64,000 nucleotides of DNA, from the IMG/VR virus record IMGVR_UViG_3300014205_000180, positions 1 to 64,000 of that record; one strand, 5' to 3'. This DNA is from a virus. Taxonomy: Duplodnaviria; Caudoviricetes. How positions within the stretch are numbered: position 1 is the stretch's first letter; each line of letters begins with the position of its first letter. Position numbers and translations under genes: made by a program. This document shows positions 396-15,440 of this stretch, piece by piece. A model generated the notes under the pieces. That model was not told the DNA's origin, did no database searches, and worked only from the letters and a program-made list of their open reading frames with translations.

Positions 396-857
396 ATGAA
401 AGTAGGAGGCGTTGGAGTTGGTCAAGCAATAGGCCCAGCAATAATATCTAGAAAAGCAGTGGAATTGATGGAAATTGATTATGAACAATTGCTTGGAAAA
501 TTAAAAAAACATTTAAAACGCATAGAACACCCAGATATATTAACAATAAGATATTTTGTATTTGATTATTTGTATCCACCAAAAAATAAAAAAGATCAAC
601 ATGGCCGATTTTTCGCAGATATAAATGATTCATCAGTTATAAAAGTTGTTAATGTATTATATGATTTAAGTCCACGTGTTAAATTAATTATTGATAATAA
701 TACAGATAAATTGAATGGAGGATATACAGGATTATTACCACGAACGATCACTATTCCAAAAATTAAAAAGCCATTTCCGAAATTTCCAATTTTCAATGAA
801 ACCTTCGATAATATCGACAGCAAGGTAACTGATCTTTTAAATATTGACAAAAAATGA
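396..857 (+). CDS. YE-scaffold family protein (paralogue 1)
   Basis: IDYEQLL and VVNVLYDLSP motifs shared with about 10 local paralogues. Confidence 0.7.
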   Translation: MKVGGVGVGQAIGPAIISRKAVELMEIDYEQLLGKLKKHLKRIEHPDILTIRYFVFDYLYPPKNKKDQHGRFFADINDSSVIKVVNVLYDLSPRVKLIIDNNTDKLNGGYTGLLPRTITIPKIKKPFPKFPIFNETFDNIDSKVTDLLNIDKK

Positions 858-1171
858 AATATCGAGAGCTTGATTATGGTTGGTTAATGTCAGAAATCAT
901 GAAGAAGTATGCAGAGAATAGACTATCTGATAGCATATTATCAATAATTAGGAGAATATTAACAGAAAATAAAATAATATTGGAAGATGGCGGGATAGGT
1001 GATGTGGTAGCCATTCTCATTCCATTAGATGAAACTGGAGCTATTAAAAAAATAGTTGAACATGAATATACACATCCATATATCCCATTAATGTATACAG
1101 ATTCAGTTAAGATCGCTGATACCACACGTCAAAGTTTAGAATCAAGATATGGAGTCAAGACATCCCGATAA
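854..1171 (+). CDS. YE-scaffold family protein (paralogue 2)
   Basis: LDYGWLM and VVAILIPLDE motifs; ATGA overlap with the previous gene; tail HPYIPL. Confidence 0.7.
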   Translation: MKYRELDYGWLMSEIMKKYAENRLSDSILSIIRRILTENKIILEDGGIGDVVAILIPLDETGAIKKIVEHEYTHPYIPLMYTDSVKIADTTRQSLESRYGVKTSR

Positions 1172-8841: not shown

Positions 8842-9177
8842 TTATTCCTGTGCTGTTATTGTAAGTGGCTTATTATCATTCAATGGTGGTAATACCACTA
8901 TCTTTCCAGTAACATCAAATGTGATTGTTATATGATCTACAGGAGGAATGTACCAACTACATTCTATTTCACGTATGTAAGGGTCTAATTCCATTAAAAC
9001 CTCAATGATTTTATCAATGAACTTACGATCATTTGGATAAATATCCTTTATTACACGTGTCAATTCTGCACTATCTCTTGGTTGTTTAGCTTTAATATAT
9101 TCTATAAGCTCTTCATAATTGACATGTAAGTGATTAGGTTTTTCATAATTGATATGTAAATGATTTAATTCGTACAT
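8842..9177 (-). CDS. YE-scaffold family protein (paralogue 6, duplicated N-terminal motif)
   Basis: NHLHINYEK-P-NHLHVNYEELI tandem duplication; IIEVLMELDPYI. Confidence 0.7.
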   Translation of the reverse strand: MYELNHLHINYEKPNHLHVNYEELIEYIKAKQPRDSAELTRVIKDIYPNDRKFIDKIIEVLMELDPYIREIECSWYIPPVDHITITFDVTGKIVVLPPLNDNKPLTITAQE

Positions 9178-9179
9178 GG

Positions 9180-9503
9180 CTACACCTGTGTTACGCCATA
9201 TTCAACATTAGCTGCTTTATCACTATTATTGCTTATTTCTGGATCGATTTCTGGGTATAAATCATATAATATTCTTAAAATTTTATGTAACTCCTTCATG
9301 TTGTATACATCCATTAATGGTATTACCTTTTCAGTATAACGCCTTTCGTTATCGAAGTTTAGCCATTCTTTTATCTTTATAAATCCGTTTGTTTCAAGAT
9401 ATCTGATAATAGTGTTAGACTTTGTTATTTCTCGCCCATATTTATAATCATCAATGACAACCTTAAGCTTTTCATAATTTAAATTGGCATGATTTATGGA
9501 CAT
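9180..9503 (-). CDS. YE-scaffold family protein (paralogue 7)
   Basis: LNYEKLK and ILRILYDLYPEI motifs. Confidence 0.7.
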   Translation of the reverse strand: MSINHANLNYEKLKVVIDDYKYGREITKSNTIIRYLETNGFIKIKEWLNFDNERRYTEKVIPLMDVYNMKELHKILRILYDLYPEIDPEISNNSDKAANVEYGVTQV

Positions 9504-9826
9504 GCAGTTAAAAAACTATTATTGATTTTAATGGGGACATAATAATGTGGTCGAATTACAGATAATTCTCCAGGCCAGCTTGCTCCTTTATATCCAATTA
9601 CTACATAATCATTATCACTATCAATAATTGTATGATCTATATCTAATAATATATCGATTATTTTTAATATTTCGTGCGTATTATTTGCTAAAATTGGCTT
9701 ATTATTTCCAATTAATATGGCTCCGATAGTCAACCCGAGACTCATTCTACTAGTTATTGGCTTTTTTAATTTCCAATTTTTAATATCAGTAAGTAATTGT
9801 TCATAGTTGACATCAAAAGCATTCAT
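9494..9826 (-). CDS. YE-scaffold family protein (paralogue 8) with gp23-like GYKG tail
   Basis: VNYEQLL and IIDILLDID motifs, followed by NDYVVIGYKGAS. Confidence 0.7.
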   Translation of the reverse strand: MNAFDVNYEQLLTDIKNWKLKKPITSRMSLGLTIGAILIGNNKPILANNTHEILKIIDILLDIDHTIIDSDNDYVVIGYKGASWPGELSVIRPHYYVPIKINNSFLTACP

Positions 9827-10287
9827 GCTGGTCTATCAGGATAATACTGAGGAATATATTCTACCACTTTTGACCATTTATTTCCAGCAATTAAGCATAA
9901 ACGACGAATCAAAGTTGCAGATGTTGGATGTGCCTTGAGATGAGCAAGACGTTCTGGATCTAAACCCTTATTCGCTATAATACGATCTGGATCGCCTAAG
10001 AATTGAATTAGATCACCAAATACCAGTCTATGAGCAGTATCGCTCTTTGAAATTGTAGTAGAATTTTTAGTGAGAACTTCGGTATTTGGCGGAAGATGAT
10101 CAGCAGGTACAGTAGTTGTGTCTTTAAAACGTTGTTCAAAAGCTATCATATTATCATCAATTACACACCATCCAAATGATCCATCACCTCGTGCAATTTT
10201 TCTAGTTAAAACTGGAATCTCACTACCATCTGGCATCTTTAATGTCGCAGCGCTGTAAGTTCCACTTAAAGTATCTGATTGATTCAT
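9823..10287 (-). CDS. hypothetical protein
   Basis: 154-aa ORF with AAGGA SD. Confidence 0.7.
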   Translation of the reverse strand: MNQSDTLSGTYSAATLKMPDGSEIPVLTRKIARGDGSFGWCVIDDNMIAFEQRFKDTTTVPADHLPPNTEVLTKNSTTISKSDTAHRLVFGDLIQFLGDPDRIIANKGLDPERLAHLKAHPTSATLIRRLCLIAGNKWSKVVEYIPQYYPDRPA

Positions 10288-10327: not shown

Positions 10328-10921
10328 TCAATCCTTCTTTGGAACTAATATTTTACTTCCTGGCTTATAAGGTGCAAAGACAAGCCCAGGACTAGTTTTA
10401 GATTTACCTTTAAATCCCATTTTAATATTACTAAGGCTAAGATCTTCTTTAGCCTCAGCGCTCCATTTGCATTTTAATGAACGTCGTTCAGCTTTTATCT
10501 TTATTATTACCATTCCATTTTTTTCGACTCTATCGCCAGATTCTAAATCACGCCATCTTCTTAATTGTTCTGGAACAGATTGAAGTCTGTATGGTGCACA
10601 TGTCCTGCAAATATGTTCTTGGTACCAATTTCCAGGTATTCTAACATCATGAATGAAACAACATCCATCACCAACATCTAATATTCTAATTGGCCATTCA
10701 ATCTTTTTGTTTTTAAACAATTCACTAATATTTTCAGCGTTAAAATTAAGAACTTTATAAAACGTTAATTTTTTACCTGATTTTACTCCAAGCGAAAAAC
10801 AATTTCCGCGAGGCAGTGGGAAATCTTTAGGAATATAACCAACACAAGTCTGACTACCCATTTCAATAGCATTAAGGAATTTAGTTGGTTTTGAAACTGC
10901 CTTAATGTCTTTTAAATTCAT
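10328..10921 (-). CDS. hypothetical protein with C-terminal T4 gp23-like capsid segments
   Basis: IKAERRSLKCKWSAEAKEDL and MGFKGKSKTSPGLVFAPYKP resemble two conserved gp23 blocks. Confidence 0.65.
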   Translation of the reverse strand: MNLKDIKAVSKPTKFLNAIEMGSQTCVGYIPKDFPLPRGNCFSLGVKSGKKLTFYKVLNFNAENISELFKNKKIEWPIRILDVGDGCCFIHDVRIPGNWYQEHICRTCAPYRLQSVPEQLRRWRDLESGDRVEKNGMVIIKIKAERRSLKCKWSAEAKEDLSLSNIKMGFKGKSKTSPGLVFAPYKPGSKILVPKKD

Positions 10922-10954
10922 ATAAATAAAATACCTAACTCAAAAATATTTAAT

Positions 10955-11875
10955 ATGAAGTTGAATAGTTTAAATAAGGATAAATTAAGAATTGGGGTGA
11001 TAGGGTATTGTTCTCAATATTTTGATAAAAAAGATGCTAAAAATAAATTAGAAAAAACAGTCAAGAATATAGTAAAAAACAACAAACTTCCAGTACATAT
11101 AGTGTCGGGCCTTACAAATATTGGAATGATGGCGATAGCATATAAAGTGGCAAGCGAAAATGGCTACAAAACAGTTGGCTATGCATGTAAAAAAGCTTTA
11201 GATATGGAATTATTTGATGTTGATAAGAAACATATTATTGGAGATAAGTGGGGAGATGAAAGCGAAGAATTTATTAATAATATAGACGTATTAATAAAAG
11301 TTGGAGGTGGTGAACAATCTAAGAAAGAATTAAAAATGGCTAAAGAATTAGGTATTGAAACTCATGAGTGCGATGTAAAAGAGAAAATATCATATTGTTT
11401 AATGGGATATCTTAATAAAGATTCAGCAAAAGAAATTCATGAACAAGCCAAGAATTTAAAAGCCAGAGAAGTTAAAAAACCAGATTACCACATAACTATA
11501 AGATACTGGTTAGCTGATCCTAAAGAAAGTATCTCAAAAGTAACCAAATATTTAGATGATAGATTTAAGCATCCAGTGCTTATTGAAGCAGATTATGAAG
11601 GCGAAACTGAAACTTTTGGTAATGAAAAATCACATGTACTTCTTGTTAATAGCAAATCTTTAAACGAATTCCAAAAGGACATTGATAATAAATTGCAAAG
11701 CTTTGGCGCTCCACCATCAGATTTTCCTGATTATAGGGCGCACATAACTGTCGCAGAAGGCGTAACAAAGAATGTTAAAATTAAGAATTGTAAAGTGCTG
11801 ATAAACAAATGGATTCTTACTACTAACAATGATTCAAACGAAAAACCTAAAGTTATTTGGGAAAAGGAATTCTAG
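10955..11875 (+). CDS. SLOG domain fused to 2H phosphodiesterase (Acb1/gp57B-like)
   Basis: N-terminal IGVIG, IVSGLTNIG, TVG and VGGGEQSKKE SLOG-type motifs; C-terminal HxT pair YHITIRY and GAPPSDFPDYRAHITVA. Confidence 0.75.
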   Translation: MKLNSLNKDKLRIGVIGYCSQYFDKKDAKNKLEKTVKNIVKNNKLPVHIVSGLTNIGMMAIAYKVASENGYKTVGYACKKALDMELFDVDKKHIIGDKWGDESEEFINNIDVLIKVGGGEQSKKELKMAKELGIETHECDVKEKISYCLMGYLNKDSAKEIHEQAKNLKAREVKKPDYHITIRYWLADPKESISKVTKYLDDRFKHPVLIEADYEGETETFGNEKSHVLLVNSKSLNEFQKDIDNKLQSFGAPPSDFPDYRAHITVAEGVTKNVKIKNCKVLINKWILTTNNDSNEKPKVIWEKEF

Positions 11876-12317
11876 AGATATCTTCAGCATAAATTCCAAC
11901 AACTTTACTATCCATTGATAATTGGGTTCTTAATCTAGTTAATTGCGGATGATGCTTTAAACAATTGCTTAATCTTCTACCAGAATCAGTGTTAATAATT
12001 TTAATTTTTGCATTTACTTTACCATCTTTTACTTCAACATCTGTTACCACAGCACCAGCACGCATTAAATCATTACGACCACTTTCTCCATCAATATTGT
12101 CAAATACCAATACAGTCTTTTCTTTTATTCTTTTTTGCAGATCCTCAATTGCTTTTTCTACTACTTCTTTTGGATAAACCATTCCATTAGCGTTTGGCTT
12201 ATTATCATTGCAGACTTCCATAATGTTAACGACTAAATCAGGATTATCTTGTTTAAACTGTTCGCGCATTTTTGCGTCACGGATGGTCTGCTCATTTTCA
12301 TCGTCATGATTACTCAT
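11853..12317 (-). CDS. T4 gp21-like prohead protease homologue, apparently inactive
   Basis: NANGMVYPKEVVEKAI and AKIKIINTDSGR match gp21 blocks; the ELDHP His and GxSSRG Ser motifs are absent. Confidence 0.6.
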   Translation of the reverse strand: MSNHDDENEQTIRDAKMREQFKQDNPDLVVNIMEVCNDNKPNANGMVYPKEVVEKAIEDLQKRIKEKTVLVFDNIDGESGRNDLMRAGAVVTDVEVKDGKVNAKIKIINTDSGRRLSNCLKHHPQLTRLRTQLSMDSKVVGIYAEDISRIPFPK

Positions 12318-15104: not shown

Positions 15105-15440
15105 CTAAATACTAATACGGGCTTTTTTGGTTGGGCGATCACGACTAATCCCAATACTTTCCATTCCAATACTTATTCTGAATAGTATCAGGCGTGTTAG
15201 AGACTGACTGGCAGCCATTGGTTGAACACTGACAAGATCACTAATGGCGTCATGACTAAGTGCTTTTTTAACATTTTCATCTAATTCAGCTAAAATTCTA
15301 GCAACATCGTATATACTATGACCTCTTATTTTGCCTCTTAAAATTTTATTTAATTGATTTAATAATTGAAACTGATCCTTAATTAGATGAGGCTTTAACT
15401 TTTTTAAAATTTCTTCGTAATCTAACTTACTATAATGCAC
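15105..15440 (-). CDS. YE-scaffold family protein (paralogue 10) with Gol-like DLVSVQPM tail
   Basis: LDYEEIL and VARILAELDENV motifs, followed by ISDLVSVQPM. Confidence 0.7.
   Translation of the reverse strand: MHYSKLDYEEILKKLKPHLIKDQFQLLNQLNKILRGKIRGHSIYDVARILAELDENVKKALSHDAISDLVSVQPMAASQSLTRLILFRISIGMESIGISRDRPTKKARISI

Follow-up and report, generated by a model that had tools for sequence, protein, structure and literature searches.

The minus-strand ORF at positions 10,328 to 10,921 raises the question of whether a small phage gene can carry pieces of the capsid protein gp23 behind a domain of different origin, and what such a protein would do. The window analysed here covers the first 64 kb of an IMG/VR virus record of 150,988 bp, the genome of which contains 635 ORFs. 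The genome is that of a T4-like phage with about 34% GC, and its capsid gene shares only 29-37% identity with that of any GenBank phage.

A non-capsid domain followed by two gp23 segments

The ORF encodes 197 aa and its C-terminus reads as quoted in the initial annotation, which had described a chimera of a Cys/His-containing domain and two distant gp23 segments. The gene and its parts are as follows.

10328..10921, minus strand: whole gene, 197 aa, C-terminus ...IKAERRSLKCKWSAEAKEDLSLSNIKMGFKGKSKTSPGLVFAPYKPGSKILVPKKD
10502..10921, minus strand: N-terminal domain (aa 1-140), made up of an OB-like beta-barrel, then a Cys-bearing region and a helix
10439..10498, minus strand: tail segment 1 (aa 142-161, IKAERRSLKCKWSAEAKEDL), equivalent to residues 272-291 of the phage's own gp23 and 259-278 of T4 gp23
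10427..10438, minus strand: junction (aa 162-165, SLSN), in place of ~134 aa of gp23
10361..10426, minus strand: tail segment 2 (aa 166-187, IKMGFKGKSKTSPGLVFAPYKP), equivalent to residues 429-450 of the phage's own gp23 and ~434-455 of T4 gp23
10328..10360, minus strand: C-terminal end (aa 188-197, GSKILVPKKD) and stop, kept in close homologues

The gp23 parts replaced by the junction SLSN are the whole A domain and most of the spine helix. Alignment to PDB 6uzc_a placed the two T4 strings cited in the initial annotation, IEAKSRQLKAAYSIELAQDL and VGYKGPNEMDAGIYYAPY, at gp23 259-278 and 436-453, about 157 aa apart and in agreement with the spacing of roughly 150 aa given for them. The joining of two gp23 segments by a short linker also held, but the linker is not 6 aa long as had been proposed; by alignment it measures ~3-4 aa, because I-K aligns with gp23 K-I-L ahead of MGFKG. 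The YE scaffold was correctly described as missing, as the ORF has no (L/V/I)(D/N)YExL motif. A prohead-protease cleavage site at the junction was considered and rejected, as inspection found no (L/I)xE motif there.

The phage's own gp23 (G000:C1:136334-137815, 493 aa) was matched by the tail as two collinear HSPs, one pairing ORF residues 142-161 with gp23 272-291 (50% identity) and the other pairing ORF residues 166-187 with gp23 429-450 (55% identity). The top non-self match of gp23 among the 635 ORFs was this same ORF (BLASTP E 0.01; gp23-HMM E 0.0027). Pfam Gp23 aligned to aa 141-162 at profile positions 142-163 (E 0.03) and phrog_138 to aa 168-189 at profile positions 361-382 (E 0.057), both below threshold; the Pfam match scored 14.2 bits and missed the PF07068 gathering cut-off of 24.4 bits. 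These independent curated models meet the same two blocks and their profile positions agree. Two short blocks alone align and the HK97 fold, with its N-arm, its P domain and spine helix and its A domain, is not complete, and the local homology of the tail to gp23 P-domain blocks is a matter of descent, not of membership of PF07068. A profile of five close homologues found no gp23 or gp24 among PDB sequences, its best matches being noise such as cytochrome c subunits. The window ORF by itself is marginal, and it is because of its family that the tail-gp23 match is significant.

The ORF opens a minus-strand run of small ORFs (10328-10921, 9823-10287, 9494-9826, 9180-9503 and 8842-9177), and its divergent neighbour is a SLOG/Acb1-like gene at 10955-11875. 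The T4 late-promoter motif TATAAATA was found at 10921-10928 (+), 27 nt ahead of the SLOG/Acb1-like gene, and this is one of only two occurrences within the 151-kb genome that have the start of an ORF no more than 70 nt downstream. Genome-wide the motif was not enriched (33 observed vs 42 expected), and it was absent upstream of gp23.

The N-terminal domain family and the origin of its tails

AlphaFold2 modelling of the window protein with a 91-sequence alignment gave an OB-like fold for aa 11-145 (pLDDT >90). The tail (aa 150-197) was predicted at pLDDT 42-59 and without sheet, and thus as unfolded and not as a capsid-like domain. The model of P0133, a family member with a fuller tail, contained only a helix, in a spine-helix-like stretch, and no compact mini P-domain. 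Fold searches with the N-domain (Foldseek on PDB and BFVD; VIA-align) returned only weak OB/S1-like barrels (Z<=4.7), which identify the fold class only. Nine residues of the domain, N40, C41, N59, E63, P77, D92, R94, C105 and C108, were invariant or at least 90% conserved in the family profile A3, and the window protein has all nine. This pattern suggests a zinc site formed by C41, C105 and C108, perhaps with H91.

A BFVD fold match led to the Pectobacterium jumbo phage CBB (vB_PcaM_CBB), from which profile searches gave cultured homologues in Rak2-like phages, ~253-kb T4-like vibriophages and Cronobacter S13. The A3 profile matched CBB_477 at E 1.9e-9 and CBB_477 matched phrog_23380 at E 6.4e-89; phrog_23380 was also matched by 55 of 91 family members. 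The window protein gave no direct match to phrog_23380, so that its own link to that family is transitive. CBB_477 and CBB_476 are tandem paralogues in a tRNA-rich region of small ORFs (KU574722.1:313917-314901; L023:4918-5902), and CBB_476 carries a PrlF-antitoxin domain in its authors' annotation (PMC5259590). CBB_390-546 is the presumed early host-takeover region, and the tail-less CBB_477 is missing from the list of CBB virion proteins (PMC5259590). In the cultured homologues a CxxC...CxxC region forms the C-terminal end, and a gp23-like tail is lacking. Proteins with the N-domain but no tail, after which the initial annotation had asked, are common; in a quarter of family members fewer than 15 aa follow the domain.

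Other searches for the family were negative. It was absent from T4, S-RIM8 and the 595-kb phage LR756511, and neither near-DNA nor tblastn queries with the ORF, P0132 and P0148 found a homologue in cultured phages. The ESM Atlas returned no usable match, and NCBIfam and PADLOC nothing meaningful. IMG/VR scans found no relatives with A1 and none with P0282, and A3 was too diverged for patterns.

A profile search of 1.84 billion representatives found the N-domain in at least 467 protein clusters. From the family 154 proteins were taken, with each 50%-identity cluster represented once apart from the five close homologues, and run against a gp23 HMM built on 32 capsid proteins of the window phage's clade. 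At E<=0.01 the HMM matched 14 of the 154 members and none of the reversed or shuffled sets, and 35 of the 36 domain matches fell inside the two segments, together 25% of the HMM. P0132, in which the two segments abut directly, reached E 1.2e-13. Isolated tails matched at iE<=1 in 39 of 125 cases (1-3 for shuffles), with the matches of all 39 confined to HMM 270-330 or 430-500, and each of the nine tails with multiple matches was collinear with gp23. The independent models Pfam Gp23 and phrog_138 were matched by five (best 5.4e-9) and three (best 1.7e-7) of 91 members, respectively. Family members thus match gp23-family profiles significantly, the result on which the initial annotation had let its case depend.

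The tails are collinear mosaics of conserved gp23 blocks, namely RKLKxxWxxExxxD, the (V)H-x-I-D-A-E helix start and GYxYAPYIP, and the C-terminal gp23 block MTRYGKK...FYGxVxV is also present in some members. The tail of P0279, which lies on an IMG/VR contig that also bears gp23, matched residues 541-591 of that gp23 at E 2e-7. A test for co-variation between a tail and the gp23 of the same phage did not demonstrate any: the P0279 tail scored only slightly better against its own gp23, and the window tail scored alike against two gp23s that are 36% identical over their aligning C-terminal ~290 aa. The gp23-like tails were scattered on a poorly resolved N-domain tree (29 changes for 39 rows). A search for longer fused forms returned none, which counts for little. 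The architecture recurs in independent assemblies from NCBI, JGI, ENA and Logan.

Four close homologues (70-81% identity) from independent assemblies all keep the tail, and in three of the four the ILMGFKG match is even better than in the window protein. P0002 has lost the MGF of segment 2. P0003, P0004 and P0005 (L006:665-1438) have a conserved basic and proline-rich extension beyond the gp23-like tail (...EGKQKRGGVN..PTKPKP.L.PPPQ.KRK) that the window protein lacks. Pairwise dN/dS was 0.15-0.38 for the tail vs 0.15-0.18 for the N-domain. At the DNA level the tail no longer resembles gene 23; its third codon positions match in 8 of 20 and 3 of 22 codons, i.e. at random, and the GC content is 34% in the tail and 59% in gene 23. 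The low dN/dS and the loss of DNA similarity mark this as an old fusion maintained at the protein level. The chimera claim therefore stands, with a Cys-bearing non-capsid domain joined to two distant gp23 segments, and so does the earlier statement that this is not a decayed capsid gene, given a conserved family, the tail dN/dS and the absent similarity to gene 23. The observation of a two-segment gp23 tail behind another domain is confirmed, and the gene product is an accessory protein of two parts that is under selection and has a reduced gp23 P domain as its tail.

The gp23 gene (minus strand at L001:1441-2922) itself forms a sharp GC island of 59-64% GC. The scaffold-like gene upstream of it has 48-53% GC, and the flanks 25-31% in a genome of ~34%.

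Pieces of structural proteins, or hints of them, were also seen in other small ORFs; of the other gp23-like mini-ORFs in the window only ORF 15105-15440 could be confirmed. ORF 15105-15440 (-), 111 aa, has an N-terminal LDYEEIL motif, and its residues 19-91 matched gp23 HMM 48-119, including a Gol-like DLVSVQPM (E 0.011 among 635 ORFs); the syntenic ORF 5695-5988 of the relative L004 gave a weak Pfam Gp23 match. ORF 854-1171 (+) ends in HPYIPL...SRYGVK with a weak likeness to gp23 HMM 457-488 (E 2), and ORF 9494-9826 (-) reads VVIGYKGAS...YYVPIK with no significant gp23 HMM match. ORF 11853-12317 (-), 154 aa, matched only a part of the prohead protease (positions 49-133 of 519 in phrog_207, E 7.8e-9), and its Pfam S77 match (E 3.9e-5) missed the cut-off. 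L004, a close relative, has no gene at the syntenic place. Near P0133, on a 122-kb contig, L009:13016-13492 (158 aa) matched Phage_sheath_1C, the tail sheath C-terminal domain, and may be another small gene derived from a piece of a structural protein. The Vibrio phages 6E35.1a (MW824377.1:61903-62769) and D479 (OZ195776.1:99718-100563) carry, besides gp23, open frames of 300-323 aa in which the Pfam Gp23 match is limited to about positions 3-46 and 125-374. A small frame in D479 (OZ195776.1:222621-222746) matched Pfam Gp23 positions 7-48 and has one internal TAA.

Retained capsid elements and what the tail may do

About 46 of the ~500 gp23 residues remain in the tail, and nothing of gp23 was recognisable ahead of segment 1 or beyond the hairpin of segment 2. 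Segment 1 comprises a positively charged P-domain beta-strand and a short negatively charged helix, and segment 2 a P-domain beta-sheet hairpin directly ahead of the P loop. In T4, neighbouring capsomers meet near the quasi-threefold axes through P-loop contacts and through electrostatic contacts that pair the short negatively charged P-domain helix with a positively charged P-domain beta-strand region (PMC9546572). A275 of T4 sits in this helix, which touches the adjacent capsomer (PMC9958956; PMC9546572), and this identifies the helix as T4 271-278 (SIELAQDL), the second half of segment 1. The T4 head-length mutations A268V, A275T, D285V and D287V/N lie within or beside segment 1, and T457A, R460C and G461S lie right after segment 2; head-length and gp31-bypass mutations cluster at these inter-capsomer contact elements (PMC9546572; PMC9958956).

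Mapping the segments on the capsid fold had been proposed as a check on whether they are spatial neighbours. They are, as both are parts of one domain, the P domain, at the quasi-threefold contacts between capsomers. Of the label 'capsid-surface mimic', the gp23 origin of the pieces is borne out but 'surface' is not, as they are inter-capsomer contact elements at the capsomer periphery and not on the outer surface. The residues kept most often across tails are R, L, K, W, E and D in segment 1 and G..YAPYIP in segment 2. These are also the most invariant residues of gp23, and HMM detection favours them, so that the capsid cannot be named as the partner on the strength of their retention. The tail probably works through mimicry of the capsomer contact surface; mimicry as a function, and any decoy role, we infer only.

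The explanation that we prefer, tentatively and with somewhat less than even confidence, is that the tail docks on gp23 capsomer edges, where the N-domain would be its cargo or the growth of the lattice would be affected. The contact elements of gp23 would form a homotypic capsomer-to-capsomer contact at the quasi-threefold axes, and since the interface is homotypic a detached copy should bind its complement on gp23 capsomer edges. Such a free copy would act like dominant-negative interface fragments. The tail would dock the N-domain onto an unassembled or growing gp23 lattice, either that of its own phage or that of a co-infecting T4-like phage, and the N-domain would there deliver its activity or modulate lattice growth. 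Docking is favoured by the mapping of the retained residues to the T4 electrostatic inter-capsomer contact elements, by the prediction of the tails of two members as unfolded, as expected for a motif string that becomes ordered upon binding, and by the match of a second member's tail (P0279) to its own phage's gp23. However, the gene lies among small accessory and anti-defence-like genes outside the head module, and the cultured N-domain homologues are in a presumed early region and unlisted in the CBB virion proteome. The tails are also often missing or differ in block content, which would be unusual for a core assembly factor, and a generic capsomer-edge binder could damage the phage's own assembly.

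The main rival explanation, which we consider rather unlikely, is that the tail is a counter-defence bait that mimics gp23 motifs read by a host immune sensor or by another reader of nascent gp23. In this proposal the protein would be made early, the tail would occupy or misdirect the reader and the N-domain might act on it. Major capsid proteins are sensed by several systems, some via short motifs, as for Lit and CapRel (bioRxiv 10.64898/2026.01.04.697583). The genomic setting of the family fits a bait, as the immediate neighbour is a SLOG/Acb1-like 2H phosphoesterase, a relative's locus has Acb2/Tad1-hairpin, NUDIX and SET genes, and the cultured homologues fall in the presumed early host-takeover region of CBB and not in its virion proteome list. 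The tails are patchy, variable and often lost, like arms-race genes, and other small ORFs of the window bear other head-protein pieces. However, the Gol/Lit motif occupies another region of gp23 (T4 93-122), a faithful mimic might equally trigger the sensor, and PADLOC and NCBIfam gave no match. We know of no sensor that reads these P-domain blocks.

T4-like phages might carry a modular 'bait-and-effector' class of proteins in which an evolvable string of capsid contact motifs directs a conserved effector domain, a proposal that we regard as unlikely and advance as speculation. With the same reserve, such a string might engage and neutralise readers of nascent gp23, whether an MCP-sensing receptor or a rival phage's growing capsid.

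It is improbable that the tail is a relic of the old fusion that now serves as a mere linker or stability element of an N-domain protein, with no mimicry. Many members do without the tail, it is predicted to be disordered and P0002 has lost the MGF of segment 2, all of which would suit a relic. Against this, the residues that persist across clusters of less than 50% identity coincide exactly with those invariant in gp23, dN/dS is clearly below 1, and a neutral linker would not have retained RKLKxxWxxE and GYxYAPYIP for so long, nor would collinearity in nine of nine tails be expected of it. Chance or compositional likeness to gp23, or an assembly chimera, is scarcely credible: the window ORF's Pfam and PHROG matches are sub-threshold and the close-homologue profile misses T4 gp23 in the PDB, but the 14 real vs 0 control matches at E<=0.01, their collinear restriction to two regions and the E 1.2e-13 of P0132 exclude chance resemblance, and the same architecture in the four sources of independent assemblies argues against a chimera.

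A full-text literature search found no description of a phage protein that joins a non-capsid domain to reduced gp23 P-domain motifs, and the architecture is widespread, with no fewer than 39 carriers among the 154 diverse family proteins examined. It offers a first functional clue for a large phage family, the relatives of phrog_23380. If the tail binds capsomer edges, this would be a phage protein that reaches or regulates the lattice through a copy of the capsid's inter-capsomer contact, and would offer a handle on capsid size control and on the targeting of cargo to capsids. If a host sensor is engaged instead, the protein would become the first capsid-motif decoy known from nature and would imply an unknown P-domain sensor. 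A true bait-and-effector class would amount to natural interface-fragment mimicry in phage-host or phage-phage conflict.

Comparison with known systems

The closest comparison is to gp23 and gp24, the T4-type major capsid and vertex proteins with the HK97 fold (PF07068; PDB 6UZC, 7VS5, 5VF3 and 1YUE). The tail is homologous to two P-domain blocks and has them in the same order as gp23, but it lacks the N-arm, the insertion domain and the A domain, has lost most of the spine helix and is predicted to be unfolded. Because the tail is joined to an unrelated domain, the window protein cannot be a shell subunit. With the phrog_23380 family (CBB_477 and CBB_476) the window protein shares the N-domain motifs GN(C/Y), N(F/L)xxE(N/D)L and (I/V)xDxR(I/F)P and the setting of small accessory genes in non-structural regions, whereas the cultured homologues have the CxxC...CxxC end in place of a gp23-like tail.

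The Gol peptide of T4 gp23, known from the Lit exclusion system, is a precedent for a short and highly conserved gp23 stretch that is a recognisable motif outside the assembled capsid. The Gol peptide, however, lies within gp23 itself, at T4 93-122, and the tail segments map to 259-278 and 436-453. Dominant-negative fragments and microProteins are similar in that a detached excerpt of a self-association interface is expected to bind its parent protein; they are mostly experimental or eukaryotic and regulatory, whereas this fragment occurs naturally in a phage product, joined to another conserved domain. T4 Soc binds between gp23 capsomers near the quasi-threefold axes, but it has an unrelated fold and no homology to gp23 and is a proven virion component.

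The phage-satellite redirectors P4 Sid, SaPI CpmB and PLE TcaP, all of them small, attach to the capsomer lattice and alter the joining of capsomers (PMC10945586). They are satellite-encoded, are not derived from a capsid protein and have demonstrated effects, whereas the window gene is phage-borne and known by its sequence alone. The likeness to them lies in the T4 head-length mutations, which map to the very elements that are copied in the tail of the window protein.
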